From Bdellovibrionota bacterium (GTDB lineage: Bacteria > Bdellovibrionota_C > UBA2361 > OMII01), in assembly GCA_044345405.1 (NCBI GenBank), contig JBIJBE010000010.1, positions 1 through 64,000 of the forward strand: DNA of 64,000 nucleotides, written 5' to 3'. Made by a program: the position numbers and the translations under genes. Below the pieces are notes generated by a model. It was not told the origin of the DNA, did not search any database, and worked only from the letters and a program-made list of their open reading frames with translations. Shown one piece after another: positions 5,647 through 58,544 of this stretch. Every line of letters begins with the position of its first letter. Positions within the stretch are counted from its first letter, which is position 1.

Positions 5647-6018
5647 ATGACTAAGAAAGCACAAAAGCAAACAACGGCGGGCGGTGAAGTAACTCGCGCA
5701 ACGTTAAAGCAGATTCGGATGTCGCCTCGTAAGGCGCGCCTCGTGATCGATTTGATCCGTGGAAAGCAGGTTGAGCCAGCTCTCCAGATCCTTCAGTTCT
5801 CCACTAAGAAGGGCGCGAAGTTCGCGCACAAGTTGCTCCAGTCGGCTATCGCCAACGCTCGTGAGCACGCTCGTGCGGACGTTGACCGCTTGTGGGTAAC
5901 CGCTGGATGGGTTGACGAGGGACAGACCCTCAAGCGTTTCATGCCAGCGGCTCATGGTCGCGCGACTCCAATTCGCAAGCGATCCTCTCACATGACTATC
6001 GTTCTCGGTGAGAAGTAA
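5647..6018 (+). CDS. rplV: 50S ribosomal protein L22
   Basis: RMSPRKARLVIDLIRGK, IRKRSSH. Confidence 0.97.
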   Translation: MTKKAQKQTTAGGEVTRATLKQIRMSPRKARLVIDLIRGKQVEPALQILQFSTKKGAKFAHKLLQSAIANAREHARADVDRLWVTAGWVDEGQTLKRFMPAAHGRATPIRKRSSHMTIVLGEK

Positions 6019-26303: not shown

Positions 26304-27524
26304 ATGGCCAAGCAATTCAACATTCCACGCTCCTACCGCTCCGAACTCATCGGTCAGATTAAGAAGCGGCGCACCGCTGAGGACTCCCGCAAGGAGCAGC
26401 TACACGGCACTATCGTGGATGTTGGTCCCGTTGTCTTTCACATCGCGCGGTTCTTCGGATTCTGCTACGGCGTTGAGAACGCGATCGAGATCGCGTACCG
26501 AGCGCTGGAGGAGAATCCGGGCAAGAGGATTTTTCTTCTCAGTGAGATGATTCACAATCCTCACGTGAACTCCGATCTCTTGAGCCGCGGAGTTCGATTC
26601 TTGCAGACGGCGGAGGGGGAGCAGTTGATCCCGTTCTCAGAGCTACGCGCAGATGATGTGGTCATCATTCCAGCGTTCGGCACGACGAGGGAGATGTTTG
26701 ACGCGTTGATCGCCCTCGGTATCAATCCCCAGAGCTACAATGCTACCTGTCCCTTCGTTGAGAAGGTGTGGAAGCGAGGCAAGCAGCTCGCGCAGCAGGG
26801 CTACTCGATAGTGATTCACGGAAAGCATACCCACGAAGAGACCCGCGCGACCTTCTCGCACATTCAAATTGATGGGCCGAGCGTTGTTGTCCGCGATAAG
26901 GAGGAGACCGAACTTCTGACTCAGTACATTCGAGGGGAGCTGCCGTTGGAGCGCTTCGCGATGGACTTCGCTGGGCGCTATTCGGCGAACTTTGATCCCG
27001 CGCGACATCTCAGCCGCATGGGGGTCGTGAACCAGACAACGATGCTCGCCGAGGAAACTCGCGAGATAGCCGCGACAGTGAGGGACGCCCTCGTCGCTCG
27101 ATTTGGTGAGGGAGAGATCGCTGAGCATTACGCCGATACGCGAGACACTCTGTGCTACGCTACCTCAGAGAATCAGCGCGCGATGAAGGGGCTTTTACAT
27201 GAGGAGGCGGATCTGGCGGTTGTCGTTGGTGGATACAACTCCTCAAATACCTCCCACCTGGTCGAGCTTTGTGAGGGAAAACTCCCCGCCTTCTACGTGA
27301 AGGATGCCGAGGAGATCGTGAGCGCGGAGGAGATTCGTCACCTCGACCTCGCGACCAAACGAGTGGTGAGCAGCCACGGATGGTTGCCACAAAAAAAAGA
27401 GAAGGTGCATATCCTCATCTCAGCCGGGGCGAGCTGTCCCGACGCGATGGTAGAGTCGGTCATATCGAAGATATCGAGCCTTTATCCATCCGCATTGGGC
27501 TTAACTCAGGCGGTTGGTTCGTAG
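26304..27524 (+). CDS. ispH: 4-hydroxy-3-methylbut-2-enyl diphosphate reductase (long form)
   Basis: FGFCYGVENA, IHNP, ATCPFV, NQTT, DTLCYAT, GGYNSSNT, AGASCP. Confidence 0.96.
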   Translation: MAKQFNIPRSYRSELIGQIKKRRTAEDSRKEQLHGTIVDVGPVVFHIARFFGFCYGVENAIEIAYRALEENPGKRIFLLSEMIHNPHVNSDLLSRGVRFLQTAEGEQLIPFSELRADDVVIIPAFGTTREMFDALIALGINPQSYNATCPFVEKVWKRGKQLAQQGYSIVIHGKHTHEETRATFSHIQIDGPSVVVRDKEETELLTQYIRGELPLERFAMDFAGRYSANFDPARHLSRMGVVNQTTMLAEETREIAATVRDALVARFGEGEIAEHYADTRDTLCYATSENQRAMKGLLHEEADLAVVVGGYNSSNTSHLVELCEGKLPAFYVKDAEEIVSAEEIRHLDLATKRVVSSHGWLPQKKEKVHILISAGASCPDAMVESVISKISSLYPSALGLTQAVGS

Positions 27525-43964: not shown

Positions 43965-44274
43965 TACCTCAACCGTATCAAATGGTCGGAGATCTCCGAT
44001 AGGGGCACGGTTGGGTTGGCTGCGCCGCGAGCTGGACGTTCGACTGTTTCCTGTCTATATGCGACATGCCGCCAGATGGAATGTCTCTGTCCTTGCAAAA
44101 TATCGGATGAGAATTTGGGTACATAGCTCGGTCAGATATGCTACGGAGTTGATCCCTGACCTTACCCAGCCCACTCCTGACTGCCGCGTTTAAACCCTGC
44201 GCGAAGATCGTTTGCGTCATCAATATTTTCGGCGATCGGCATGTTCCCCATAGCTTTGGCAGCGAGGGAGCCCG

Positions 44275-45327
44275 TCAGCACCCTTTCGCTGAAGCTACAG
44301 GGCACAAGGAGACAGGCCCTTCGGATTGGTCGCGCACAATATCAAAACCTTTCGACCCTACGATCGTTTCCCCGTTCTTCACCATCCACCCCACATCTCC
44401 CCACTGGCGCAAGATTCGACTGGAAGGCGCCCCTCTGATAACCAGATACTTCACAAACGCCTCTCCATCCGTCGCGGAGGGGCCGCGAACCGCGGCTCCA
44501 CGAGATGTTTTCACCGGCATCCCCGTTCGCGGATCAAAGATGTGAGCGTAGGCGATACCGTTAATCACAAAGGGTGTGCCCCGCGCCCGTGAAACCGAGA
44601 GCGTCTCATCCCGCAGTTCGACCGGTCCATCCGAGGATCCCTCGCTCAGGGCGAGCTCCATCCTCCAGCCCGGCGCGCCGGGTGGCGTTCCGATGGCGGC
44701 GATACTACTGCGTCCGAAGTTGATAAAAGCGTGTCGCACACCGCGCGATTTGAGGTAGGTGGACATAGAGTCCACTGCGTATCCCTTGCCGATACCGCCT
44801 GTTTCGATCCTGACCGCGGGATACCTCTTGCCGAGGGTCGATGGGGGAGAAGTGTTGATGTTTGAGGGGGAGATGAGCGTTTTTACGCGGGCGATAGCTG
44901 ATGGTGATGGGGTCACACCGGTCTTGGCAGCCGCTTCCCACATCTCAACGAGGGGACGCACCCCGATGGTGAAAGCGTGATCAGTTTTGTCTGAGAGCTC
45001 CTGTGAGCGCACGACAAGCGCGAAGAGGTCAGGATCGACTGGCCGTAGCCCAGTGGAGGTATCTCGATTAAAGACGCTCACCGGACTCTCCGACTTCCAG
45101 GTGCTCAACACGGAGTCGAGGCGCTCAGCTATCGTGAATGTGTCATTGAGGATCTCGCGTCCATCGCGCTGGGAGGGCGCGAATATGGTGATGTCGAGCA
45201 GGGTGCCCATCACGTAACGGATCTCCGAGACCTGCTCAAGAGCCGGAGGAGGGGAGCTGTCGTGCGACATCCCTGAGCATCCGATACAGAGGCTCATCGC
45301 TAGTAGGAAGAAGTGAGTAACTCGCAT
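44275..45327 (-). CDS. apbE: FAD:protein FMN transferase (ApbE) lipoprotein
   Basis: MGT, LS.W...S.VS.FN, GGIGKGYAVD, AFINFG, HIFDPRTG.P; lipobox IGC; ATG 45327. Confidence 0.92.
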   Translation of the reverse strand: MRVTHFFLLAMSLCIGCSGMSHDSSPPPALEQVSEIRYVMGTLLDITIFAPSQRDGREILNDTFTIAERLDSVLSTWKSESPVSVFNRDTSTGLRPVDPDLFALVVRSQELSDKTDHAFTIGVRPLVEMWEAAAKTGVTPSPSAIARVKTLISPSNINTSPPSTLGKRYPAVRIETGGIGKGYAVDSMSTYLKSRGVRHAFINFGRSSIAAIGTPPGAPGWRMELALSEGSSDGPVELRDETLSVSRARGTPFVINGIAYAHIFDPRTGMPVKTSRGAAVRGPSATDGEAFVKYLVIRGAPSSRILRQWGDVGWMVKNGETIVGSKGFDIVRDQSEGPVSLCPVASAKGC

Positions 45328-45332
45328 GAGAC

Positions 45333-45848
45333 CTACGATGGTCGAGGTCGTTGCGCCGAGTCTGCATAGGCGTTGCGTTTCGACATCGCCACTGACCATG
45401 CCGAGAGAGCGATCGTCGTGATCAGCGAGAGCTGCAGGATCACAAATGAAGCTATCTTCATATACGCGAAGAGAGGGCTCACGAACACGATCAACCATCC
45501 GGAGGCCTCATCAAGAAACGCGCTCGTGAACGCGGCCACTATCAGCACAACCTTGAGCAATCCGTTAACCGGCACAAAGAGGAGTAGGTGCATGAGGGAT
45601 ACTAAAAATATCCCCATCGCGAAGAGGTGGAAGTGACTAACCTCCATGAGCCCCCGGATACTCTTCGGGCGGGTGAACTTTTCAGGCGAGCCGAGGTAGT
45701 GTTCCACGACCCCTTGGTAGCTCAATCCCATCTCCATGTAGAGTCCGAAATTCGTGAGCCAAAAAGCGAAACAGTAAAAGAGAAAGAAGAGCACGATCAC
45801 TCGTAAGAGCGTATTACGACTCCATTCGCCGGTGATGATAAATCGCAT
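45333..45848 (-). CDS. Four-TM membrane protein with a His cluster (possible heme-b protein)
   Basis: YLG..EKF..P.S, EVSHFHLFAMG...LMHLL; start overlaps the upstream stop codon. Confidence 0.8.
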   Translation of the reverse strand: MRFIITGEWSRNTLLRVIVLFFLFYCFAFWLTNFGLYMEMGLSYQGVVEHYLGSPEKFTRPKSIRGLMEVSHFHLFAMGIFLVSLMHLLLFVPVNGLLKVVLIVAAFTSAFLDEASGWLIVFVSPLFAYMKIASFVILQLSLITTIALSAWSVAMSKRNAYADSAQRPRPS

Positions 45849-46441
45849 TACTTCGTTTCCTTAAGGAGAACTTCGAACGAGGCCCGAACCGCTCGAACAC
45901 CGTCCGATAATCCGTTCACGGTCAGGGTGGATCCTGCTATCGGAGCGAGTCCTTGTCCAGGCACTAAATCCTGCATCGGTTTAGGACCCTCGAGCTGTTT
46001 AAGCCACGTATCTGTTGGTTGATAGTCAGAGGGTTCGTGAAACGCGAGAAGCACGACCTTTTGAACAACTCGGTCCGGTGATACGACCACCATGAATACG
46101 GCCAAGTTAGTCCGCATGACTCGCGAATCGATGACCGCGTATCCGAGCAATTCCCCGTTTCGCCGACCCTCGAAGTATTGAAAGAAGGATGAGGTAAGTT
46201 TCGTTTGCGCGAGCTCCTCGATGACCGCTTTCTGGTCTGCGGAGATCTTTTGGGTGCGGGAGGTCATCTGAGTCCCGGGGCCGAAGGCCGCTTCCATCGC
46301 CTCGTCTTGGGCTAAGAATACCTCCGCGCGCGCGGAGAGGGGAGACCCCGCGACGCACAGAGCAAGGAGTAAGGATGGGAGGAGGCGGAGCGTGGAACCC
46401 CGTCGCCGTTTATCCCCGTGGAGATACTCCCCCTTCACCAT
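45848..46441 (-). CDS. Exported FMN-binding domain protein
   Basis: Signal peptide (...SARA), AFHEP.DY.P..WL.QL, IAGSTLT flavinylation-like motif. Confidence 0.85.
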   Translation of the reverse strand: MVKGEYLHGDKRRRGSTLRLLPSLLLALCVAGSPLSARAEVFLAQDEAMEAAFGPGTQMTSRTQKISADQKAVIEELAQTKLTSSFFQYFEGRRNGELLGYAVIDSRVMRTNLAVFMVVVSPDRVVQKVVLLAFHEPSDYQPTDTWLKQLEGPKPMQDLVPGQGLAPIAGSTLTVNGLSDGVRAVRASFEVLLKETK

Positions 46442-46453
46442 CCTTGATCCCTC

Positions 46454-47833
46454 TTAGTATACGAAGCCAAGACCCAACGCGACCACATCAGCTGGTGGTG
46501 TTGGACCATCAACTTGGTAGTTCTTGTAATCGGCCTTGATTACAACCTTGTCGACGGGCTTGTAGGATAGTCCGACCGTGTAGATCGTTTGATCGAGCGA
46601 ACCATCCCTAGGGAAGCCGGACGGAACCGCGGCTTGGGTGTCCATCCGCTCATAGCGGAAGAACGGAGCAACGCTTTGCCGAGTACCGCTCACAAGATGA
46701 GGAAGGATATCGTAGGCTCCCTCAACATACCATCCGTCCTGGCGACTTCCGATCGTCTCTTCGTTCTGCTCGCTAACGTCGGCTGCATTCTGAATTCCCG
46801 TCCAGGCGCCCAGCGCGCGGAGTTGGAGCTGTCGGTAGTTATATTGAGCGTGAGCCGAGCCGATCGTTGTGAGAACGGTTGGGTAGCTCCCATCGAACTC
46901 TTCATTCTGTCCCGATCCACCTACCCAGAAGGAGCTTCCAACAAGGAGTCCTGGAACTGCGTCAGGGGTAAAATCAAGACGTCCAGTCCACGCTACGTCC
47001 TCGAAGAGGGCTTGGTTACCCTTTTGTCGTCCATCTCGGATACCGGTATCCTCAAATCGTGACGCTCGAAGTCCGTTTACCAGGTAGGTTCGGTACTCGA
47101 GTTTTCCACCCGCGTCTCCTTGGCCGAAGAATCCCATACCTATCTCGCGCCACGTCGTTGGGATGATGTATCGCTCTACATCCGGGCGAATAACGCCGTA
47201 GAAGTAGTTCGGCTCATGGATTTCGTTGATGAAACCCATGGGGATGAGCACGTTACCGGCTCGCACGTTGAATTGCTTCTCAAGGAGGAAGTCGAGGTAG
47301 GCGAACTCAACCGAGACCTCTCCACCTTTGTCGCCAGAGTCTCCGCCGATATCATCGGTCGTGCCGTGCTCAAGCTCGATCTCTGAGTTGAAGAGGATGT
47401 TATCGCTGAACTTGTACCCAATATAGGTGACCAGGCGGAGCGTATCCGCTTTATTGTCCTTACCGTCCGCGTTATCTACGTAGGCCTGGTAATTCGCCTC
47501 ACCGTATCCACCGATCGAAAGACCGCTCGATACGTTATAGACGCTTGATGCGGCCGGACCCATACCCCACTGGCTCTTGAGCTCTTTCTTCTCAGGAAGG
47601 AGTTGCCCAATCCGGGTTTGTTTAATCTCGCTCGCAAGCGATGTGGTGGTCTCCTCAACCTTTTTGTCCTGCTCCACGATCTTCTTGTCCTGGTCGTTCA
47701 GCTTGGCCTCAAGAGCGGCCAAGCGCTCTTTGAGGAGCTTAATCTCATCCCGATCATCGGCGAGCGCTGTTGAGGGGAGGGCGGAGGTTAGAAGAGCCGC
47801 GGATGCAAAGAGGCTCTTTGCTAATCGTTTCAT
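46454..47833 (-). CDS. Outer-membrane porin (OprO/OprP-like) with N-terminal coiled coil
   Basis: Signal peptide, IGGYGE, FNSEIELEHG, VEFAYLD, HEP, IIPTTWRE, terminal LGLGFVY. Confidence 0.85.
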   Translation of the reverse strand: MKRLAKSLFASAALLTSALPSTALADDRDEIKLLKERLAALEAKLNDQDKKIVEQDKKVEETTTSLASEIKQTRIGQLLPEKKELKSQWGMGPAASSVYNVSSGLSIGGYGEANYQAYVDNADGKDNKADTLRLVTYIGYKFSDNILFNSEIELEHGTTDDIGGDSGDKGGEVSVEFAYLDFLLEKQFNVRAGNVLIPMGFINEIHEPNYFYGVIRPDVERYIIPTTWREIGMGFFGQGDAGGKLEYRTYLVNGLRASRFEDTGIRDGRQKGNQALFEDVAWTGRLDFTPDAVPGLLVGSSFWVGGSGQNEEFDGSYPTVLTTIGSAHAQYNYRQLQLRALGAWTGIQNAADVSEQNEETIGSRQDGWYVEGAYDILPHLVSGTRQSVAPFFRYERMDTQAAVPSGFPRDGSLDQTIYTVGLSYKPVDKVVIKADYKNYQVDGPTPPADVVALGLGFVY

Positions 47834-47873
47834 GTGTTTAGTTCCTGAAAAGCCTCGTTTCCGCGGTATGATC

Positions 47874-47890
47874 TGTGAATTAGAATCACA
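47874..47890. promoter_or_regulatory. Palindromic operator candidate upstream of the porin operon
   Basis: TGTGA-attagaa-TCACA (N7), just downstream of a minus-strand TTGACA at 47907-47912. Confidence 0.45.
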
Positions 47891-48002
47891 ACGGAGAAGC
47901 GAGATGTGTCAAAACGCCGCTATGTGTATCAGTAGGGCGTTTGGCATGTCAAGCAGGGGTGCGGGTTATATGAGTCAGAATCGTACTTCAGCTGTTTTTT
48001 TC

Positions 48003-49544
48003 TTATCCCTCTCCCGTCGGAAAAAGGGATAGCTGCGAAGTATCTCTGTGCGGCCGCCCCGTTCCACGCTGTCTCCGCTTCCGGCTGCCGTGACGGGAGA
48101 GGGTGGTTTTTGATTCGGTCCGGAACTCAGGGCGACCGCGCCACTCGCGGATGACCTCGCGGGCGCGCCGGACGGCTTCAAGGTGGATGACCACCCGTTC
48201 AGGGTACTCCAGGCCTATCTGTACCCCCGCCTCGTTCAATTCAACGGGGGAGAGCTTCCACGGCTCGTGAATCAGCGGACTTTTGATCGCGGCAAGCTCC
48301 GGCACCCACGCTCGAACGAAATCGCCCCGCGGATCGTGGTCGTACCCCTGTTTGACCGGATCGTACATACGCAGCGCATTGATCCCGGTGGTGCCAGACT
48401 GCATCTGGATCTGCGGATAGTGAATGCCCGGCTCATAATCTAAGAACTCTCTCGCCAGGAAATGGGAGAACGTTCGCCAATCGAGGAAGAGATCGTACGC
48501 CGCGAAGCTGACGAGCATCGCTCGCATACGAAAGTTGAGCCATCCGGTCGCGCGAAGTGAACGCATGCAGGCGTCAACGAATGGGTAGCCGGTGCGCCCC
48601 TCCTGCCACGCTGTGAGGTGCTCCTCGTTGTGGTACCCGTCCCTCATCGTATCAAGCGCAGGGATGAAGGTATGGAATTCTATCGAGGGCTCCATCTCAA
48701 GTTTCTGAATGAAGTGGCAATGCCAGTGGAGTCGGGACTCGAAGGCCGAGAGTGAGCGAAGCCACGTGCCACGGGCGAGGGGATGACTCTCTCGGAGTCG
48801 CGAGATGGTCTTTCGTGTGTCCGCCACCACGGTTCGCATCGAGACGTTCCCCCACGCGAGGTAGGGGCTGAGTCGAGAGCCGAAATGTCGAGCCGTCAAA
48901 GGGCTTGAAATGGCGCGTGAGTAGGTCTCTCCACGCTCGGTGAGAAATGAGCGTAAGCAGTGGTGGGCGGCGCGCTCCCCGGGCTTTTGGTGAAGGGAGG
49001 ATGGCTCGAAATCGCCGGGCACCGGTGGGATATCGCCGATCTCAATCGGAAGAGGGGAGAGGCACTGGGGAGGGGGTTCAACGGGTGCGGTCATCAATTC
49101 TTCCCACCGCGTCGTCCATCGCTCGCGTGTTCGTAGACGTCGCACAACACCGAACTGTCGGGGCTCGTGCCACGCTATTCCTTTCTTATGGCACCAAGCC
49201 CCTACCGCCTTGTCACGCTCGAAGGTCTGCGCGTTTCCCGTTTCTTCGTGCGACCAGAGGGTGAACGTTCCGAAGGCTCGCTGAAGCTCACGAAGAACGT
49301 CTAGAGCTTCCCCCTCCCGTACCACGAGGGGTTGTCCGAGGGTCGCCAAATCCTGACGCAGCTCTCGCACGGACTCCGTGACCCACCATCGATGTCGTGA
49401 GCTCATATCGGGAGCATTCCACACCGAGGGTTCAAAGATGTAGAGGGGAAGAACGGGACCCGCGTGAGCCGCGGAGGAGAGCGGGGCGTGATCGAGGACT
49501 CGAAGATCCCGCTTAAACCAAACAACCTGCACCTGAGATCCCAT
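48003..49544 (-). CDS. Cryptochrome/photolyase family protein
   Basis: VWFKRDLRVLDH, SRLSPYLAWG, GRTGYPFVDACMR, WLNFRMRAM, DYEPGIH; ATG 49544. Confidence 0.95.
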   Translation of the reverse strand: MGSQVQVVWFKRDLRVLDHAPLSSAAHAGPVLPLYIFEPSVWNAPDMSSRHRWWVTESVRELRQDLATLGQPLVVREGEALDVLRELQRAFGTFTLWSHEETGNAQTFERDKAVGAWCHKKGIAWHEPRQFGVVRRLRTRERWTTRWEELMTAPVEPPPQCLSPLPIEIGDIPPVPGDFEPSSLHQKPGERAAHHCLRSFLTERGETYSRAISSPLTARHFGSRLSPYLAWGNVSMRTVVADTRKTISRLRESHPLARGTWLRSLSAFESRLHWHCHFIQKLEMEPSIEFHTFIPALDTMRDGYHNEEHLTAWQEGRTGYPFVDACMRSLRATGWLNFRMRAMLVSFAAYDLFLDWRTFSHFLAREFLDYEPGIHYPQIQMQSGTTGINALRMYDPVKQGYDHDPRGDFVRAWVPELAAIKSPLIHEPWKLSPVELNEAGVQIGLEYPERVVIHLEAVRRAREVIREWRGRPEFRTESKTTLSRHGSRKRRQRGTGRPHRDTSQLSLFPTGEG

Positions 49545-49656
49545 ACCTGAACAGCCCTCTGAGAACACCGTAGCGGAAATGAGATCCGAACCTCAAATGG
49601 CGAACGATCGATGTTCACTAAATGCCGCTAACCACCTCTTCTCCCCAGGTATGACC

Positions 49657-50835
49657 TTACCTGACCGTGATTGAGAGAAGTTTCGGGAAGTTCCTCCCGG
49701 AGTCCAACAACTCCATACCGGACTCCTGGATGTGCGTGCCCTCAAATGACACCACCTCAAGATTATGGGAGGTGCCCGAACTTATCAGTGCCTCAACGCA
49801 CAAACTATCCGCGTTGGAGTGTGAGAGGGTGAGCTCTCGAAGCTTCGGAAACCGGGTGCTAAAGATATCGGCGAAATCCTCGGATGATAGGCTGTATCCT
49901 CGAATCGTGAGCCGCTCAAGAGAGGGCGCTAGTTCTTTGAGTGTTTCGATCCCGTTCTCGTCGATGTTAGCGTTGATATCAAGCGAGGTTGTTATTCCGG
50001 GCTGAACGAAGCGATTGAGAAAGGAGTAGGGACCGAAGCGATAGCTCGCCGATACTGCGTCGATCCGTACGTATTCGCCGATCAACTTCCATCGCCTTCT
50101 CTCCTCGTGGCTATCAGGAAGGCACCCGATAACGTTGAGCTCTCGCACAAAGTGGGTCCCTTTGTATCCGCACACCGGCGCGGCGTCGAGTGGATGACAG
50201 GTAAGGGTATGTAGTTTAGGCGCGAGGTGCCCGAGACTTGCCACATCCGGATCTACGCCACGAAGGGTCAGCTCTTCCACACCCTCCATTACCTTCGCGT
50301 CGTTGAGCATCGACGCGATGTTCTTGCTACACTCCAGAATGTGTAGCTTTCGAATGGGATGCGCCTTCGCGACTGATGCCACAAGCCCCGCGCCTTCGCC
50401 CGATCCAGAGATGGTTATCTCATCGATCAAGCCGTTTCGAAGACGAACATTCGTGTCGCGACCGTAGCTAAAGGGCGCGAGACGTCGGCCTATCTCTTCC
50501 GCGGCGCGCAGCGAGTCGTAGTGCTTGGCGCGGGCGCGCTCATCGGATGAGAGAGTGCGCGCGCTTCCGAGCGCGCACATATCCCTGATTAACTCCGCTT
50601 TGGCGATATCAGCCTCTGTCCCTTGCGTCTCAAGGAAGTCGGCGTAGCGAAGGTAGTTCGAATTGTTTTCTCCACCTCCGTTCTTTCTGATCTCCGCGAT
50701 GAAGGTACGCTCCTCGTCACCGCGAACTCGCTGTTCCCAGTTGATGTGAGCGAGATCTACCGCTGATGGCTGTTGTGTTGAGACAAAAGGTATATCTTCG
50801 GCGAATGCGTGCGCCGATCCTGCGTGACGTCCCAT
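49657..50835 (-). CDS. TIGR02996-like domain plus leucine-rich repeat protein
   Basis: YLRYADFLE.QG...KAELIR..C.L; LxxLxI/L repeats (LERLTI, FPKLRELTLS, LEVVSF). Confidence 0.7.
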   Translation of the reverse strand: MGRHAGSAHAFAEDIPFVSTQQPSAVDLAHINWEQRVRGDEERTFIAEIRKNGGGENNSNYLRYADFLETQGTEADIAKAELIRDMCALGSARTLSSDERARAKHYDSLRAAEEIGRRLAPFSYGRDTNVRLRNGLIDEITISGSGEGAGLVASVAKAHPIRKLHILECSKNIASMLNDAKVMEGVEELTLRGVDPDVASLGHLAPKLHTLTCHPLDAAPVCGYKGTHFVRELNVIGCLPDSHEERRRWKLIGEYVRIDAVSASYRFGPYSFLNRFVQPGITTSLDINANIDENGIETLKELAPSLERLTIRGYSLSSEDFADIFSTRFPKLRELTLSHSNADSLCVEALISSGTSHNLEVVSFEGTHIQESGMELLDSGRNFPKLLSITVR

Positions 50836-50979
50836 ACTTAATCCCCCCTAAAGTAGTGACGGTCTAGAGGATGGTATGTGAGGCAGTGAAGGTGATGTGA
50901 CCTCAGTGCCGTAAGGGGCTCTTTTAAGGGAAGATCCCGACGCAGGGAGCGGTTAAGCCACCCTTCAAATCCCGCGGTT

Positions 50980-51654
50980 TTAGGTGGGAAGGGAGAGGAC
51001 GTAGATCTGGTTCTCTTCGATAACGATATGCTTGGTTTTTTCAAGCTCTTTGAGCGCTCGGGTGACCGCTTCACGGGAGGAGCCGATCATGCTCGCCAGC
51101 GCTTGATGAGTGGGCGGTTCGTGGGTGACGTGAGCTGGCGCTCCGTCATATTCGCTCGGAACGCTCATCTCAAAGAGGATTCGAGCGACGCGGGAGGTCA
51201 CATCGAAGAGCGCGAGATCCGAGATCCTCGACGACGCGGAACGAACCCGTAGGGCGAGGTTTTTGAGCATCGCTAGCGCCAGACCACCAAACTCAAGGAG
51301 ATGGGCCTCAAAATCCTCTTTAGAGCACCGGAACAGCCGACAGTTGGTGAGGGCGACAACATCAGCGACTCGCGGACCTCCACAGAGGAGTGAGATATCT
51401 CCGACTACCTCGCCTGGACGGAGGAGCGCCAAGATGACCTCCTTCCCATTTCGGAAACTGCACACCTTGATGCTGCCACTCACGATGAAGTACATCTCAG
51501 CGCCCGGTGTGCCCTCTGTAATGAGGTACTTTCCTGCCGGTATCTCAACCACGGAGAGTCGATGGTGTAGCGTGGCACGCTCCTCGGCGCAGAGATGCGA
51601 AAATGGAGGAGTCGATTCGAGCTCCAATAGTTCTGGTTGTGTTGATGAACTCAT
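50980..51654 (-). CDS. CRP/FNR-family transcriptional regulator
   Basis: cNMP-binding barrel (EG..GAEMYFIVSG, GEVVGDISLL...PR) and HTH LASMIGSSREAVTR. Confidence 0.93.
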   Translation of the reverse strand: MSSSTQPELLELESTPPFSHLCAEERATLHHRLSVVEIPAGKYLITEGTPGAEMYFIVSGSIKVCSFRNGKEVILALLRPGEVVGDISLLCGGPRVADVVALTNCRLFRCSKEDFEAHLLEFGGLALAMLKNLALRVRSASSRISDLALFDVTSRVARILFEMSVPSEYDGAPAHVTHEPPTHQALASMIGSSREAVTRALKELEKTKHIVIEENQIYVLSLPT

Positions 51655-51663
51655 CCCTTCTCC

Positions 51664-52761
51664 TCAGAGCACCGCTTCCTTCGTAATGATCAAGGCCCTT
51701 CTTGGATTACCGTCTGGAGAGAAAGAAGATACGGTAGTTTGAAAGGCTTGAGCAACCTCAAGGAGCCGTGAGTCAGTGTTGCCAGGCAAGTCTAGAGTAA
51801 CTGTTCCTCCGCGCCTAGTGATTCGTAGCGCCTCGCGCAGAGATTCCACGCAAGGGTCGTGACATATCACGCGAGAACAGAACTCATCGGGGAGGGGAAA
51901 CGCACCTCTTGTTCCTGGCACGGCGAGCGCGGCCCCTTCGCAGGCGAGCGCGCTTCCCGCGAGCTCCGCGAGGGACTCCTTGCGTCGAGTCTCCTCTGGA
52001 TGAATCGCGACGTAGAACTCCCGCGGATTCTGAAGCGAGGGGGTGATCTTTCCGCTCGGAAAGAATTCGACGGTTACCGGCGTGTGTTCCCCAAAGGTAT
52101 CCCTCCACAACGTGGCCATGTTGCGCGTCGCGCTCGTGTGAAAAACGGAACGGCCTTGGCTATCCCTCGCCTCCGGAGTTAGGTCCAACATTGGCCACAT
52201 GAATCGCTCAAGGTACATGAATGCTCCACGCAGCCAATTACCGAACGGTATCTCCGTTTGTTTCGCTAGTTGCGCCTCTTGGTGCAACGCGAGACTCCCT
52301 TCCTTGAACTCGTCGAACGTGGATCCGATGTTCCAGAGGTCCGCCGCTCGGATGATTATCTCCTCTGGTGTTGAGGGGCGAACGTCGGGATTGGTGGCCA
52401 TGATGATGTCGTGGACTTTCATGGCGTTAGACTGGGAATACCCGTTCTCTATCAGGAAGCGATAGGTGAACGTTGCGGCCAAGCTCTCAGCGCTCTCGTA
52501 GCCGAGCATGCGAGCCGGCATGTGTGATAAGGCATCGTGTAGTTCGATGGCGTTGCGGAGGGCCTCGCCATCAACCGGAATGCCGTGGTGAGCGCATCGC
52601 TCCATCAAGATCTCAGCTTTCGACCACACCGTATCGGGGTGCGATATGCCGTGGTAGGGGGATTGGGCGTCGGGTAGATAGGTGCGTTCCCGAATGTGTC
52701 TGAGTGTGAGGCGTTGCTCAAGAGAGGCGTCAGAGGGAAGGGGATGGGCGATGTTGTTCAT
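51664..52761 (-). CDS. HD-superfamily phosphohydrolase fused to a degenerate SAM-methyltransferase-like domain
   Basis: YHGISH, LHDALSH, IMATN, RAADLWN; C-terminal FPLPDEFCSRV...LREALRITRRGG. Confidence 0.75.
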   Translation of the reverse strand: MNNIAHPLPSDASLEQRLTLRHIRERTYLPDAQSPYHGISHPDTVWSKAEILMERCAHHGIPVDGEALRNAIELHDALSHMPARMLGYESAESLAATFTYRFLIENGYSQSNAMKVHDIIMATNPDVRPSTPEEIIIRAADLWNIGSTFDEFKEGSLALHQEAQLAKQTEIPFGNWLRGAFMYLERFMWPMLDLTPEARDSQGRSVFHTSATRNMATLWRDTFGEHTPVTVEFFPSGKITPSLQNPREFYVAIHPEETRRKESLAELAGSALACEGAALAVPGTRGAFPLPDEFCSRVICHDPCVESLREALRITRRGGTVTLDLPGNTDSRLLEVAQAFQTTVSSFSPDGNPRRALIITKEAVL

Positions 52762-52830
52762 ATGGGCACTCCTGTTGGGGAAGGTTGCTTTCCCTCACTG
52801 TAGTCACGTGGGAGACCGTACGTTGCCCGT

Positions 52831-52846
52831 TGTGATAAATGTCACT
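52831..52846. promoter_or_regulatory. CRP-type binding site
   Basis: TGTGA-taaatg-TCACT, 9/10 match to TGTGA-N6-TCACA, 70-85 nt upstream of the HD-CRP operon. Confidence 0.75.
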
Positions 52847-52882
52847 GAAAAATGGGAGGGGGAGATCGAGCGGAAGTAAGGC

Positions 52883-52912
52883 AAAGAAAAAGGGGCTCTC
52901 GGAGCCCCTTTT
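52883..52912 (-). terminator. Intrinsic (possibly bidirectional) terminator
   Basis: AAAAGGGGCTC-tcg-GAGCCCCTTTT with an extended A run on the left. Confidence 0.85.
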
Positions 52913-52915
52913 GAG

Positions 52916-53176
52916 TTACGCCGCTCTGCGTCTCGTACGAATCTTCGTTTTCGAGTTCAGAATTGCGTGCCGCGTTTTTTCGGGATTGAATCCAAAGTAA
53001 CGGCAGATCGAATTGAAGGAGAGAACGTATTCCTCGTCTTCGTCCATGAGGTAATCGAGTGCCTCTTGTCGAAGTTCTGGTCCACTGCTCAGATCCTCGA
53101 TAGTTCGAAGGATCATTGCTCTCATTAACTCACTAACTGCCGTGTATCCCTTCCCGCCGAGATACGCGAGATCCAT
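52916..53176 (-). CDS. Small hypothetical protein
   Basis: LMRAMILRTIED...EA..Y...SFNSIC..FGFNP pattern with basic tail; ATG 53176 preferred over TTG 53320. Confidence 0.75.
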   Translation of the reverse strand: MDLAYLGGKGYTAVSELMRAMILRTIEDLSSGPELRQEALDYLMDEDEEYVLSFNSICRYFGFNPEKTRHAILNSKTKIRTRRRAA

Positions 53177-53519
53177 TTCAGGTAAACGATCTGAGCTGCT
53201 CACTGTAGACTCCAAAAAGTTAGTCGTACATTCACGATTGAAGCCGCTCACCTCCAAACACTCTTCTCCGGCGTACACACGGCAAAGGGCGTCAGAACGT
53301 AAGCTCACTTCGAAAACCAATGAGCAAAACTGTTGTAACCTGTGTTCTCGATAAAGGTCGCCCCGTATCGAGAAGACTGCATGCGTTATGGTAGGGGGTG
53401 GTAGGGGCGCAACCTAGAAAAAACGGGAAAAGGCGAAAAAGGGGCGAGGGATGGGGATTTTAGCGGGGGAGGGTTGTTTTTATGGGTGTTTTTGGGGTGT
53501 TTTTGGGCCCGTTGGCTCG

Positions 53520-53636
53520 ACCCGGCACACCGGAGGGCGACCATTCCTGGTCGCCATATGGGTGCGAGGGGCGAAGGGAGTTTGGGGTACGGGGCATTGC
53601 GGCGCGCAGGAATGCGCGCCCTCCGGTGTGCCGGGT
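53520..53636. repeat. REP-like cluster 4 (inverted doublet with perfect 20-bp terminal inverted repeat)
   Basis: A+ at 53531, variant GGCGCGCATTCCTGCGCGCC on minus at 53600; IR 53520-53539/53617-53636. Confidence 0.9.
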
Positions 53637-53641
53637 TGCTT

Positions 53642-54721
53642 CTACAACACCCGCTCTAAGGCGAAATCGATCACGGCAAACAGCGCTTCCCCTTCAGGTG
53701 TAAGGTTGCTCAGATCGCCGCCAAGCGCCTCGGCGAGATTCTTCGTCGCGATGTCCGCGTGATAGCGAGCTGCCTTTTTCGCCTCCAGTAGCACAGCGCT
53801 CTCGCGCAATTTGGCGAGCGATTCATCAACGAAGGTCTGTTCGGTGGATGGATCCGGGGGGACGAGCAATCGCTTCGCGGCCGGATCTCCGCTCGCGATC
53901 CAGAGAATGTTGATCAGAGACGGCTTGCGCTCCGCGATATCGATCCCGGGTCGCTTACCGAGGGTGGCCTCGTCAGAGGTCACGTCGAGGATATCATCGA
54001 TGATCTGGAAGGCGATGCCGAGCGATTCTCCGAACTTGGTCATCTTCTCCTTCACGTCATCAGGAGAATCTGTCAGGGACGCTCCGCAGAACGCAGCGAG
54101 GCGGAAGAGCGACGCGGTTTTGCGGGTCGCGATCGTGAGGCTCGACTCAGGTGTATGTTCGCCGAGCGGAACAGCTATCTCGAGGGTCTCTCCCTCGACA
54201 AGCTCGATGCATGCTTGCTCGGTCGCCTCAATTATTTCACGGTCGAGCCGTGAGCAGAGACCGAACGCGCGCGTCAGGAGGAAGTCCCCGGAGAGAAGGG
54301 TTCCTGGAGTGCCATACTTCGCGTACGCCGACGGTTTGTGACGACGGATCGGTGATTGATCGATGATGTCGTCGTGCATCAAGGTCGCCATGTGAATCAA
54401 CTCGATGCCAGCGGCGATGTCGATGATATCTTCTGTAATCTCCTCGGCTCCGAGCGCTTTAGAGCAGAGAAGGGCGAGGATAGGGCGAATGCGCTTGCCT
54501 CCGAGGCTTAAGAGGTATTCGGGGATCTCGCGCATGATAGCGACGTCCGACTTGAACGTGCTTCGGATGCGGGCTTCGACGGTTGCTATCTCAGGCACGA
54601 GGGTGAGGGCGTGCGCGAACCGTTCCTTAGCGGAGGGTTGCGTTGGTGCGTCTTGGATAGTCGGGGCTGGCGTCATAGGTGTCTTTGTAGGGGCCATCTT
54701 GGTCCGAGGGGACGTTACCAC
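53642..54721 (-). CDS. Long-chain polyprenyl diphosphate synthase (IspB-like)
   Basis: GGKRIRP, ELIHMATLMHDDIID, RKTASLF, FQIIDDILD. Confidence 0.93.
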   Translation of the reverse strand: MVTSPRTKMAPTKTPMTPAPTIQDAPTQPSAKERFAHALTLVPEIATVEARIRSTFKSDVAIMREIPEYLLSLGGKRIRPILALLCSKALGAEEITEDIIDIAAGIELIHMATLMHDDIIDQSPIRRHKPSAYAKYGTPGTLLSGDFLLTRAFGLCSRLDREIIEATEQACIELVEGETLEIAVPLGEHTPESSLTIATRKTASLFRLAAFCGASLTDSPDDVKEKMTKFGESLGIAFQIIDDILDVTSDEATLGKRPGIDIAERKPSLINILWIASGDPAAKRLLVPPDPSTEQTFVDESLAKLRESAVLLEAKKAARYHADIATKNLAEALGGDLSNLTPEGEALFAVIDFALERVL

Positions 54722-54779
54722 GGGAATGATGAAGGGGAAATTAATTCACCCGGAGGGCGGCGGAATGACGTGCAAATGT

Positions 54780-54831
54780 GGTGTGAAGAAAACAAGGTGT
54801 GAAGGAAACCAGGTGTGAAGGAAACAAGGTG
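54780..54831. repeat. 16-bp tandem repeat x3 plus partial unit
   Basis: ggtgtgaagaaaacaa / ggtgtgaaggaaacca / ggtgtgaaggaaacaa / ggtg. Confidence 0.85.
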
Positions 54832-54952
54832 AGGTGAAGATCGAACCCCAATCACAACCGCACGGGGAGAAGCCGCGTTGAGCGGCGAGAGGGGGCAAAG
54901 CCCCCTGGGCCGAAGCGCCGAGCGGGAATAACAGCGCCGAATGGAAATAATG

Positions 54953-55027
54953 TGTCTCCGACGGGATTCGAACCCGTGTTACCTGCGTGAAAGGCGGGTG
55001 TCCTAGGCCAGGCTAGACGACGGAGAC
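54953..55027 (-). tRNA. tRNA-Glu(TTC); CCA not encoded
   Basis: GTCTCCG/CGGAGAC acceptor stem, CT-TTC-AC anticodon loop, GGTTCGAATCC T arm. Confidence 0.95.
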
Positions 55028-55148
55028 ATATATGGGCGAGACTAACCTTTCGGTCCCCGGTACGGCAGGGGGTCTCTTCCAAGGGCCCTAGAGTTACTTG
55101 AAGTAGCTCTTTGGGTCAACCCTTGAGGGCAACTTCCTGGTATCATTT

Positions 55149-56339
55149 GTGTACGTTATGACGGTCCTGTCCCTCGAACATCTCAAGACACTCGCCGCCC
55201 AGGTCGGACTCTCTATCGTGACGGTAGCTACTCCCGACGAATTGGTCGAGGACCGCCCCCACCTTGAGGGGTGGCAAGAGCAGGGTTTGGCAGCCGAGAT
55301 GGCGTTCATGGAGCGACCCTCTGAGCTGCTCACTACGCCGGCGAAACTGCTTCCGTCTGTGAAGAGTATCGTCGTTATCGCCGTCGCCTACGACCGCACG
55401 CCACGCCCCGAACGTGCGCCAGGGTACGGTCGTATCGCCCGGTACGCGTGGGGGCGGGATTACCACAAGGTCCTACGGCGTCGCCTTGAACGGCTCCTTG
55501 AGGTTGTGCAATCGCACGTCGGTCATTCGATTGAGTATCGAGTGTTCGCTGATTCGGTTCCCCTTCTTGAGCGAGCGCTTGCCCGACGATCGGGGCTCGG
55601 ATTCATCGGCAAGAATACGATGGCGATAATTCCTAAAGAGGGAAGCTTCTTTTTCTTGGGCGAGCTCCTGTGGAACCTGGAGATTGAGCGGCCAACGGAT
55701 CAGCCTCGCTCCCCATCCTCATGCGGTACGTGTACACAATGTCTCTCGAAGTGTCCGACCGGAGCCTTTGTGAAGGAGCATGTCCTCGACGCGAGGCGTT
55801 GTATCTCGTATCTGACTATCGAGAAGCGAAGCGCGCTGAGTTATCAGGAGCGCGAGTGGATTGGTGAGTGGCTCTTCGGATGCGATATCTGCCAAGAGGT
55901 ATGTCCATTCAACATCGTGCCGCTCAAGAAGCGCCTCGGCCCTCAGGTTCCAGAGTTAGGGCGAGAGGAGGGGGTCGGTCCTACCGTTTCGCTCGAGCGG
56001 GTACTTCGGATGCGCGGTGACGAGGAGTATCGAGCGGTCTTTCAGGGGACGGCGGTGATGCGGGCTAAACGAGAGGGGCTAGCTCGGAACGCCGCGGTTG
56101 TCGCGGCGAACACCCATGCGGAGCATCTTATTCCCCTCCTTGGGGAGGTGGTTAGACACGACGGATCGCCCCTTGTTCGTCAGCACTCGGTGTGGGCTAC
56201 GGCCGTGATGGCGTCACGGTTGGGGGAGGGCGCCCTATCCAGCGCGAAAGCGCTTCTTGATATCGCCGCTCGCGATGAGGCGGAGAGTGTGCGACAGGAG
56301 GTGCTGACCATACGCTCCCAGTTGCGCAATTTCGCCTAA
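55149..56339 (+). CDS. queG: Epoxyqueuosine reductase
   Basis: IARYAWGRDYH, GKN, CGTCTQCLSKCPT, DARRCISYLTIE, FGCDICQEVCP; HEAT-like tail. Confidence 0.95.
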   Translation: MYVMTVLSLEHLKTLAAQVGLSIVTVATPDELVEDRPHLEGWQEQGLAAEMAFMERPSELLTTPAKLLPSVKSIVVIAVAYDRTPRPERAPGYGRIARYAWGRDYHKVLRRRLERLLEVVQSHVGHSIEYRVFADSVPLLERALARRSGLGFIGKNTMAIIPKEGSFFFLGELLWNLEIERPTDQPRSPSSCGTCTQCLSKCPTGAFVKEHVLDARRCISYLTIEKRSALSYQEREWIGEWLFGCDICQEVCPFNIVPLKKRLGPQVPELGREEGVGPTVSLERVLRMRGDEEYRAVFQGTAVMRAKREGLARNAAVVAANTHAEHLIPLLGEVVRHDGSPLVRQHSVWATAVMASRLGEGALSSAKALLDIAARDEAESVRQEVLTIRSQLRNFA

Positions 56340-56357
56340 GACTCCACACTCAGGGGC

Positions 56358-56942
56358 ATGAATACAACCAAGTTTCTCTCCGTTTTCGCCCTCTCTCTCG
56401 TTGTCTCCGCGTGCGCTCCAAGTTTGGGGCTTCGGATGGAGGCGCCCGATGTGGTCAACGAGGACGCGGAGAAGAATCCTGTTGTCGCGAACGCCGCCGC
56501 GGGATCAAAAGCTCGGATCGGGCCGTTTCTTGATGGGCGCTCATCAGACACCATCGCGATGATAGATGGTCGTCAGGTTCGTACCGAAGGATCGGTGGGG
56601 ACAGCTGTGCAAACCGGTTTTGAGCGGCAACTCCGTGAAGCGGGCGTGCGGGTTGTGCTTCTTCAGGCTCCAACCATCGAAGGTGAGGTTGTGGACTGGA
56701 AGGCGCGCGTAACTCCGGATTTCCCAGCGTCAAAGGTTGTCGCGAATGCCAAGGTGAAGGTGACGATCAAGGGACCGAAGTCAGAGGTTCTCTATCGTGC
56801 CACCTATTCAGGTGAAGCAAACAAGACCCATCCCGTGCTCGGAGAGAGCGATATTCAAGCAACGCTGGGAACCGCCATGGCGACCGCCCTTGAGGCCGCT
56901 GTGAAGGATGATGGGTTCATGCAGCAGTTGGTGGTGAGATAA
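56358..56942 (+). CDS. Lipoprotein (YajG-like)
   Basis: VSAC lipobox; F.DGR motif; alpha/beta pattern. Confidence 0.7.
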   Translation: MNTTKFLSVFALSLVVSACAPSLGLRMEAPDVVNEDAEKNPVVANAAAGSKARIGPFLDGRSSDTIAMIDGRQVRTEGSVGTAVQTGFERQLREAGVRVVLLQAPTIEGEVVDWKARVTPDFPASKVVANAKVKVTIKGPKSEVLYRATYSGEANKTHPVLGESDIQATLGTAMATALEAAVKDDGFMQQLVVR

Positions 56943-56954
56943 GGGGCTTGAACC

Positions 56955-57046
56955 GGGAGGGCGACCGTTCCTGGTCGCCGAAAAATCGGACCACGCAAAG
57001 GGCGTTCATCTCAAGAAACACGGCGGCCAGGAATTGCCGCCCTCCC
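56955..57046. repeat. REP-like cluster 5 (A+, variant-)
   Basis: GGGAGGGCGACCGTTCCTGGTCGCCG at 56955; inverted variant at 57021-57046. Confidence 0.88.
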
Positions 57047-57064
57047 GGGTACCGGACCCCAAAT

Positions 57065-57544
57065 TTACTGCCCGCGCTCCGTCAACTCCCGCGCCACCCG
57101 ATCCAACATCGAATCAAAGATAAGGGGATCCTTATCGCGATACTTTGTGAGGATCTCTAACGCTTTCTCAAGTTGCCCATGCTCCTCATACCACGAAGCC
57201 ACCGCGCGATATCGGTCGGCGACGAGGGGAAGCTCTACCTTTTCACGCTCCGCCTCCTCGTACGTCGCGAGGGCCTTATCGACAGCTCCGCGGTTAAGTT
57301 CGATGTCGCCAACGTTCAAAAGATAGAAGTAGGGATTCTCCCATTCGGGACGGTCGGTGACCTCGAGGCGGTTCGCGATATGTTCGCGATACATCGTGAT
57401 CGCCTCGTCGTGTTTTCCATCGCTGGTGAGCTGTTCTGCCTCGACAAGCTCGGTCGGGCCGCTTGAGAAACAGCCAGAGGTAAGCGCAAGCGCGAGTGAA
57501 CCGATGATGGTGGAGGATAGCGAGCGACGGAGCGGGAAAACCAT
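57065..57544 (-). CDS. TPR lipoprotein
   Basis: TSGC lipobox and TPR-like helices; ATG 57544. Confidence 0.75.
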   Translation of the reverse strand: MVFPLRRSLSSTIIGSLALALTSGCFSSGPTELVEAEQLTSDGKHDEAITMYREHIANRLEVTDRPEWENPYFYLLNVGDIELNRGAVDKALATYEEAEREKVELPLVADRYRAVASWYEEHGQLEKALEILTKYRDKDPLIFDSMLDRVARELTERGQ

Positions 57545-57569
57545 AGGGCTTCCTTTGTAACGCACCTCG

Positions 57570-58544
57570 TTACGCCCGACTAGAATGAATCGTCCGATCA
57601 AGCTTTTTGAGGTAATCCTTTGTGCCGAGAGTAGTCCCTGAGGGGTCGCTTCTCCATCGCTTGTGAATCCATACCCATTGGTCAGGGCGCTCGCGGATAA
57701 GCCGCTCAAGGTTGCGGTGATACTCCGCCAGGATCTCCTCGGTGCTCTTTGAGCTGTCGAGTTCCTCTGTGTGAATTTCGAAGTGCGTTCCTTTCGTGCG
57801 GATGATGAACGCGCTCACAAAACGGGCGTTGAATCGTTTGCCGAGATCAACCAGAGCGGATGGAGTTTTAGCTGGTGTACCGAGGAAGGGTACGAAGACG
57901 CTATCGACTCGAGTGTCTTGATCGATCAGCGCCGCCATGACGCGACGCTCCTTGAAGCAGGCGATAATTCGTTTGATTCCGCTTCTGTCCGAGCGCCATA
58001 TCGTGTCGATTCCGTAGGCCTCTCGCATCGAGCGGAGCGCCACCTGTACATCTGGATTGCGGGCCTCTTTGCCAACCGTCGCGAGAGGGATCCCACGGGC
58101 GATAGTGTACGCGGCGAGGAGATCCCAATTCCCCGTGTGCGCGGTCAACGCGATGATCGGTCGATCGTCCTTTGTCCATTTAAGGATCGTGTCCCACTGA
58201 GGGCACGAGATGTGGGTGAATGGTGGTTTCAAGAGGGGGTGTAAGTTCAAGCTCTCCATCATCGAGCGACCGACGTTCTCGAAGATCTTGGGAACCACCC
58301 TCGATGATGAGGCCTCCGGAAGAAACGCCTGGAGTTGAAGCGCGGCGATACGGGCCTCTCGCAGTGGAAGTCGTCCGACGAGGTTTCCGATGGCGCCCCC
58401 CAGCGCGCTTCGCGCTGAGATCGGGATGAGGCCCACCATTTTTATAAGGGTGAGAAGCGCGCGAGAGGTGAGCGTTCGCGTCTCAGGTGACGCGCTCACT
58501 TCCTCTGACGGTGATTCTTGGGAGGCTAGAGAGGCGTCGACCAT
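57570..58544 (-). CDS. Lipid A late acyltransferase (LpxL/HtrB family)
   Basis: TAHTGNWD, LIDQD, VPFLG, PDQWVWIHKRW. Confidence 0.9.
   Translation of the reverse strand: MVDASLASQESPSEEVSASPETRTLTSRALLTLIKMVGLIPISARSALGGAIGNLVGRLPLREARIAALQLQAFLPEASSSRVVPKIFENVGRSMMESLNLHPLLKPPFTHISCPQWDTILKWTKDDRPIIALTAHTGNWDLLAAYTIARGIPLATVGKEARNPDVQVALRSMREAYGIDTIWRSDRSGIKRIIACFKERRVMAALIDQDTRVDSVFVPFLGTPAKTPSALVDLGKRFNARFVSAFIIRTKGTHFEIHTEELDSSKSTEEILAEYHRNLERLIRERPDQWVWIHKRWRSDPSGTTLGTKDYLKKLDRTIHSSRA

Follow-up and report, generated by a model that had tools for sequence, protein, structure and literature searches.

A candidate autoregulated operon pairing a gene for a phosphodiesterase-like HD protein with a crp gene in an uncultured Bdellovibrionota bacterium

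Organization of the HD-crp locus and its promoter

The window (the whole stretch of DNA analysed here, 64 kb in length) comes from an uncultured freshwater bacterium and carries, among housekeeping genes, a gene for an HD-domain protein (the HD gene) followed by a gene for a CRP-family regulator (crp). The features of this HD-crp operon are given in Table 1. The initial annotation had described two closely spaced minus-strand genes with a GGAG sequence in the gap and a terminator upstream; coordinates and sequence agreed on the gene pair, and the terminator was found with its stem and T tail. The same hairpin recurs upstream in four related loci (L001, L002, L003 and L008 of the comparison set below). 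It terminates an upstream conserved hypothetical gene and insulates the HD-crp operon. An Rfam search over positions 44000-58000 found tRNA-Glu and no other RNA.

Table 1. Features of the HD-crp locus, with positions in the window.
Feature	Position	Strand	Details
Intrinsic terminator	52883-52912	-	11-pair stem (52912-52888) and T tail
CRP box	52831-52846	-	TGTGATAAATGTCACT; AGTGA-N6-TCACA, one mismatch to the consensus, 85 nt before the HD start
Conserved TA	52819-52820	-	10 nt past the box; would be at about -30/-29; window and 7 of 8 loci
Putative -10 hexamer TACAGT	52797-52802	-	exactly 28 nt past the box
HD-gene ribosome-binding site AGGAG	52769-52773	-	from the sequence
HD gene ORF	51664-52761	-	365 aa
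HD domain, aa 1-225	52087-52761	-	minimal class I PDE-like core; model pLDDT 95
Methyltransferase-fold domain, aa ~226-365	51664-52086	-	class I SAM-methyltransferase fold, degenerate SAM motifs
Intergenic gap HD/crp	51655-51663	-	9 nt, with the GGAG ribosome-binding site for crp
crp ORF	50980-51654	-	224 aa; PF00027 E 4e-24, PF13545 E 2e-11
CRP phosphate-binding cassette G85-D86...R95-V96	51364-51402	-	E. coli equivalents G71-E72...R82-S83
CRP C-helix residues R136, A140, S141			E. coli equivalents R123, T127, S128
CRP recognition helix SREAVTR (R194, E195, R199)	51058-51078	-	R/E/R in 26 of 26 orthologues

The small gene upstream of the terminator (52916-53320, minus strand) is 95-97% identical in L001, L002 and L003, is far more conserved than its neighbours and has no credible family match. 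After crp lies an LRR/TIGR02996-like gene (49657-50835, minus strand; weak matches). L001 and L006 do not have it and carry a photolyase gene directly after crp; the LRR/TIGR02996-like gene is a lineage-specific insertion or loss. Another minus-strand operon (44275-47833) encodes a porin-like protein, a small uncharacterised protein, a membrane protein and an ApbE flavin transferase, and is syntenic in L006 at 74-95% identity.

The comparison set consisted of nine loci from eight genomes, all on MAG contigs of the closest GTDB relatives (Bdellovibrionota, 4; Proteobacteria, 3; Deltaproteobacteria, 1; 'bacterium', 1); L006 and L008 are two contigs of one genome. Upstream DNA was present for eight of the nine loci and downstream DNA for seven. 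In five of these seven, crp lies 7-11 nt past the HD stop, and HD identities across the crp-linked loci are 45-71%. The remaining two, L007 and L009, have the box and no adjoining crp in the contig DNA searched. The pairing of HD and CRP genes behind a box, which the initial annotation had put forward for a neighbourhood survey, was recovered outside the window, with crp linked in five of seven loci and the box in eight of eight.

The box itself had been annotated as TGTGA-N6-TCACT. It is present, but it does not stand above chance inside the window: boxes with at most one mismatch occur twice in the 64 kb, where 1.16 would be expected, and two or more turn up in 36 of 100 shuffles. The second of them, at 26541, was rejected as intragenic, lying inside ispH. 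Upstream of the HD gene, a box occurs in all eight loci with upstream DNA (four perfect, four with one mismatch), within 65-117 nt of the HD start. Shuffling the 300-nt region of each locus yields such a box with a per-locus probability of 0.004-0.0075. It is this conservation alone that makes the box significant, not its frequency within the window.

The promoters also share a geometry, box-N10-TA-N16-TAnnnT, which is common to the window and seven of the eight loci. Of all spacers between 10 and 49, only 28 places a TAnnnT in every one of these sequences. The exception is L009, the most distant locus (36% identity), in which this geometry and the TA are absent. Because the free positions of the promoters have diverged (11-49% identical, with only L001 and L002 alike at 84%), the shared geometry is a footprint in about seven independent sequences. 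The conserved TA may perhaps end a degenerate -35 element. If the TAnnnT hexamer is the -10 element, the box would be centred near -48.5. On the same assumption, 29 bp separate the box from the second base of the -10 in the window and seven of the eight loci, which is 7 nt beyond the class II arrangement; class II CRP promoters are described in parts of PMC10187061 as having 22 bp at this place, and class I promoters in parts of PMC4222275 as having the site at -61.5. A literature search for a CRP site at -48.5 returned nothing relevant.

TA-N16-TAnnnT was also considered as a general promoter of the organism and was not supported, being shown by 2 of 18 operon heads. A spacer of 16 is not enriched window-wide (42 versus 33-45). 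The same element occurs upstream of tRNA-Glu (55039-55062, minus strand), where it is not kept in L002, L003 and L008. L003 has a 23-nt tandem duplication in its promoter (5896-5945), which may be an assembly artefact; by eye, the 28-nt TAnnnT spacing holds either way. In L009, at 5807-5843, a perfect inverted repeat, GTTGA-N6-TCAAC, which we take to be FNR-like, lies just upstream of the CRP-like box.

CRP-type control of the operon is well supported by the box in all eight loci and by the linkage to crp, and it is close to certain that some CRP-family protein regulates this promoter. A chance match beside an incidental gene pair would agree with the window shuffles, but it is effectively refuted by the conservation of the box and by a fixed promoter geometry against background flanks, and we give it practically no weight. 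Alternatively, the box could be read by another CRP-family regulator encoded elsewhere in the genome, with crp as a second member of the regulon. The persistence of the box in L007 and L009 supports CRP control as such and would suit this alternative as well; however, the crp genes of these two loci may merely lie elsewhere, and the adjoining CRP carries the exact reader residues. We consider control by such another regulator very unlikely.

The two domains of the HD protein

Single-sequence searches with the HD protein gave no Pfam, NCBIfam or PDB match. In a model of the full protein (pLDDT 87), a helical domain is followed by a C-terminal domain with a class I methyltransferase fold; this second domain (residues ~226-365) was absent from the initial annotation. 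The helical domain has the H...HD...D ligands of the HD-domain metallohydrolase superfamily, and its metal and catalytic set comprises H37, H41, H75, D76, E92, T123, D141 and E162. All 98 rows share H37, H41, H75, D141 and E162, so the metal site looks intact; D76 is conserved in at least 90%.

The motifs YHxxxH, HDxxxH, AT and ADLxN had been read as those of class I cyclic-nucleotide phosphodiesterases (PDEs) and related bacterial HD proteins. All of them are in place (YH36-37, H41, HD75-76, T123, D141, N144), but H80 of HDxxxH does not stand up as the PDE histidine: in the HMMER alignment, the His of the PDE HDxxH motif falls one position before H80, at S79/Y, and just 25 of 81 distant two-domain relatives retain H80. 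The window protein lacks the HDxxH His of class I PDEs. Y-H-x3-H, HD, T, D-L-x-N and the Glu at D+21 are common to both, and a stretch of RhoPDE aligns gap-free, by eye, with D141, N144, F149 and E162 (D+21). A glutamine is named in parts of PMC8177086 as the selectivity residue of class I PDEs. No conserved purine-reading Gln follows D141 in the family, the best column having Gln in 22 of 98 rows. We take the A180/Y183 column to be the PDE QxxF site, a mapping that draws partly on the PDE4 sequence and partly on the N-x-x-F column of the Bacteroidota sister family described below; the alignments obtained with the three profiles below do not extend to the glutamine helix of the PDEs.

Structural comparison of the HD domain placed class I PDEs at all of ranks 1-12 (Z 15.1-16.4, rmsd 3.4-3.8), and the eukaryotic enzymes (PF00233; RhoPDE 5vyd, PDE7A, PDE8A, PDE4, PDE10A) fold alike over ~210 residues. 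The generic YedJ, YpgQ and 2pq7 group, which has the HD metal site as in the window protein, followed with Z 13.1-14.8; 2pq7 (Z 14.8, 169 residues) is close behind, within 2 Z of the best PDE. It carries a His beside the E92 position, where the window protein has Ala. The PDE reading is favoured because class I PDEs align over 203-216 residues and the generic HD proteins over 169-171, about 40 fewer. Foldseek with the HD model gave no match at E ≤ 0.001, and a BFVD fold search returned only generic phage HD proteins.

Sequence profiles were divided. Profile A2 placed PDE10A first (E 3.6e-8) and then 2pq7 (1.7e-6), profile A4 also placed PDEs first, and profile A6, which includes the Bacteroidota sisters, placed 2pq7 first (5.7e-11 versus 2e-6 for a PDE). 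On the choice between PDEase_I and generic HD proteins raised by the initial annotation, the fold and two profiles thus favour a PDE, but A6 favours 2pq7. The window protein does not reach the curated PF00233 cut-off; three of 129 distant relatives (P0099, P0114 and P0116) reach its 24.8 bits, and among 37 close relatives a single one has a weak PDEase_I match (E 0.22). Compared with class I PDEs, the HD domain is ~100 residues shorter, has neither the conserved Gln nor the HDxxH His, and lies below Pfam detection. As judged from its sequence and model, the protein plausibly works like a class I PDE, but it fails three features of membership in that class.

There are 39 close relatives of the HD protein (44-98% identity), and at E ≤ 0.001 the family numbers 636 representatives. 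The only label given to its stand-alone members is 'predicted metal-dependent HD superfamily phosphohydrolase'. Searches of phage records with the window HD domain and with P0116 found no relative, nor did a search of plasmids with P0122. P0040, P0042, P0047, P0048, P0050, P0051 and P0067 (563-658 aa) have an extra C-terminal domain of ~250 aa, whose Atlas look-alikes are unnamed; one set of them has PPDK_N on 13% of its members. In P0161, a deoxynucleoside kinase is joined to an HD domain that belongs to the window family.

HD-PycTM proteins of Bacteroidota ('Pycsar system effector family') have an HD domain homologous to that of the window protein (HHalign probability 98.9). In place of the methyltransferase fold they have a membrane domain, and at the position of A180-x-x-Y183 in the window protein their rows read N-x-x-F, four of four. 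A class III cyclase gene stands beside the HD-PycTM gene in one of the four plasmid loci viewed, following it on a Fulvitalea plasmid (L012, 4986-7676); the two would form a Pycsar-like pair with a built-in putative phosphodiesterase. The existence of a homologous sister family that is PycTM-fused and once cyclase-adjacent supports hydrolysis of a cyclic nucleotide (cNMP) by the window enzyme. The window operon itself does not appear to be a Pycsar or anti-phage system, because PADLOC gave no match for the HD protein and the surroundings are housekeeping genes; the CRP matched via its cNMP-binding domain alone.

The C-terminal domain matched YcgJ (1xxl; Z 13.7, rmsd 3.0, 132 residues aligned) and has the Rossmann-like fold of class I SAM methyltransferases. 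None of the 36 close two-domain relatives has an intact motif I (D/E-x-G-x-G), compared with 14 of the 81 distant ones; these counts exclude P0141 and P0161 as fusions of another kind. The strand-2 acidic position of SAM methyltransferases is His in 34 of the 36 close relatives. The domain is probably a pseudo-enzyme, a regulatory or ligand-sensing appendage.

The regulator and its ligand pocket

PF00027 and PF13545 matches above cut-off place the regulator in the CRP/FNR family. Its best solved relative is mycobacterial CRP (3h3u/3d0s, E 1e-23), and it scored 92.6 bits with the NCBIfam CRP equivalog, whose cut-off is 266. The DNA-reading residues of E. coli CRP are given in parts of PMC10187061 as R180/E181/R185. 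The SREAVTR helix proposed as their counterpart was confirmed, and the F-helix R-E-x3-R pattern for reading TGTGA is kept throughout the clade of 26 sequences.

The initial annotation was silent on the ligand pocket, which is non-canonical. Equivalents of G71, R82, R123 (a numbering that we assume for this residue) and S128 are kept, and the changes are E72 to D in 21 of the 26 orthologues, S83 to V/I in 18 and T127 to A in all. By position, the cassette has G in 26, D in 21 or E in 5, R in 26, and V in 14, I in 4, T in 5 or S in 3; on the C-helix, A140 occurs in 26 and S141 in 25. The sections of PMC10187061 cited here describe E(X)nRS/RT as invariant in all cAMP/cGMP-binding CRPs studied. 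The window CRP lacks this signature and reads D...RV. The full signature is kept by 5 of the 26 orthologues, the five deepest in a quick tree from which depth was read, suggesting that the clade descends from a normal cNMP receptor. The G71 and R82 equivalents, kept in every orthologue, support a cNMP ligand. In cAMP-selective eukaryotic domains, too, the Arg can be followed by a hydrophobic residue, which leaves cAMP as the likeliest ligand. In TTHA1437, an Ala in place of T127 does not preclude cAMP binding, as stated in part of PMC10187061.

Two cysteines of the CRP are conserved, C91 of the phosphate-binding loop in 23 of 26 orthologues and C105 in at least 90%; a redox input through them is possible. 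The predicted complex of the CRP dimer with the HD protein scored 0.04, which counts neither for nor against an interaction.

The altered pocket could also mean that the CRP has lost its response to cAMP and cGMP, acting ligand-free, with another cNMP or by redox through Cys, and that the box is an autorepression operator blocking -40 to -60. The three substitutions, the nearly invariant C105 and a box at neither class II nor class I spacing are in line with autorepression; on the other hand, the phosphate cassette has kept its G and R in every orthologue, and a steric repressor would need no exact spacing in eight promoters. The fixed 28-nt spacing in otherwise diverged promoters would fit a polymerase contact. 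We consider autorepression improbable and favour activation.

A proposed feedback loop and its relation to known systems

From the anatomy, conservation, folds and residues of the operon we infer how its regulator binds DNA, which nucleotides serve as ligand and substrate, that the promoter is activated and not repressed, and what the second domain does. A CRP dimer, most likely the operon's own, would bind the TGTGA-N6-TCACA site. Its ligand would be a 3',5'-cyclic nucleotide, in all likelihood cAMP, for which its affinity or selectivity may be lower than that of E. coli CRP. The loaded CRP would activate the promoter by a fixed-geometry contact with RNA polymerase, yielding more CRP and more of the HD metallo-phosphodiesterase, which would hydrolyse the nucleotide; the signal would be amplified and then shut off. 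The methyltransferase-fold domain, probably non-catalytic, may modulate the enzyme or sense a ligand. We give about an even chance to such an autoregulated operon, in which the cNMP-bound CRP induces a cNMP hydrolase. No cyclase was found among the window ORFs scanned, which were those other than ribosomal-protein ORFs.

Related arrangements have been described. In Pseudomonas aeruginosa, Vfr activates cpdA (PMC3535393, in part), so that, as in the logic proposed here, a CRP-family activator induces a cAMP phosphodiesterase. CpdA is a class III metallophosphoesterase according to parts of PMC4222275, whereas the window enzyme is of the HD/class I-like type, includes a further domain and shares its operon with the regulator gene. 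The gcyB-gcyC-cgrA operon of Rhodospirillum centenum joins a CRP gene to cNMP-metabolising genes behind a perfect CAP box; as described in parts of PMC10187061, the partners there are guanylate cyclases, i.e. enzymes of synthesis, and CgrA keeps E...RT and TS. As far as these sources go, both the logic of the loop (Vfr-cpdA) and a boxed operon containing its own CRP (gcyBC-cgrA) are known.

The substrate of the enzyme is the weak link of the mechanism. That the enzyme would destroy the regulator's own ligand is weakened by the missing Gln, by profile A6 and by the missing CRP signature. It is further weakened by SpdA of Sinorhizobium meliloti, a PDE encoded, as here, in a cluster with a crp gene (the clr/cyaD1 locus); SpdA proved to be a class III enzyme, specific for 2',3'-cNMP and not regulated by Clr (PMC4222275, in part), a warning against inferring a substrate from a neighbourhood. 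The operon could thus be CRP-regulated while its enzyme acts on another nucleotide (a 2',3'-cNMP, a (d)NMP, a dinucleoside polyphosphate or a modified nucleotide), which would make it a regulon target and not a feedback element. This precedent, the Gln-free site, the closeness of the HD domain to the YedJ/YpgQ/2pq7 proteins and the uninformative label of the stand-alone relatives speak for such a substrate, as do the absence of a nearby cyclase at three of the four plasmid sister loci and the P0161 kinase fusion, which points to nucleotide salvage. Against it stand the PDE-length structural match, the PDE-type Y36, T123, N144 and D+21 Glu, the cyclase-linked sister family and the co-transcription of the HD gene with the sensor. 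We regard another substrate as possible, if rather unlikely, and keep the feedback loop as the leading reading.

The initial annotation did not recognise the pairing as a characterised system. We found none described, but the feedback logic is known from Vfr-cpdA. In literature outside most subscription journals, neither a class I-like bacterial PDE encoded in a CRP operon, nor this fusion of HD and methyltransferase-fold domains, nor the 28-nt spacing was found described. Burroughs et al. 2015, on nucleotide-centric conflict systems, may already describe bacterial PDE-like HD domains beside cyclases. Characterised bacterial cAMP phosphodiesterases belong to class II or III, and parts of the review PMC4858519 place class I PDEs in eukaryotes.

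The bacterium probably has a feedback loop of a known type that is built from unusual components. A more far-reaching combination seems a long shot: a working bacterial enzyme of the class I (eukaryote-type) PDE lineage, minimal and without the glutamine switch, from a family of hundreds of uncharacterised prokaryotic proteins; a CRP whose altered pocket (D...RV, A-S) reads a non-canonical (e.g. pyrimidine) cNMP; a dead methyltransferase coupling hydrolysis to SAM/SAH or another nucleoside; and activation from a new position at about -48.5.

A class I-like fold in a CRP regulon offers a substrate hypothesis for the large unannotated HD family and a compact case for how a major drug-target fold may have arisen, and the matched divergence of the enzyme and sensor pockets makes the ligand question reducible to two purified proteins. 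The conserved 28-nt spacing would add another geometry for CRP action.
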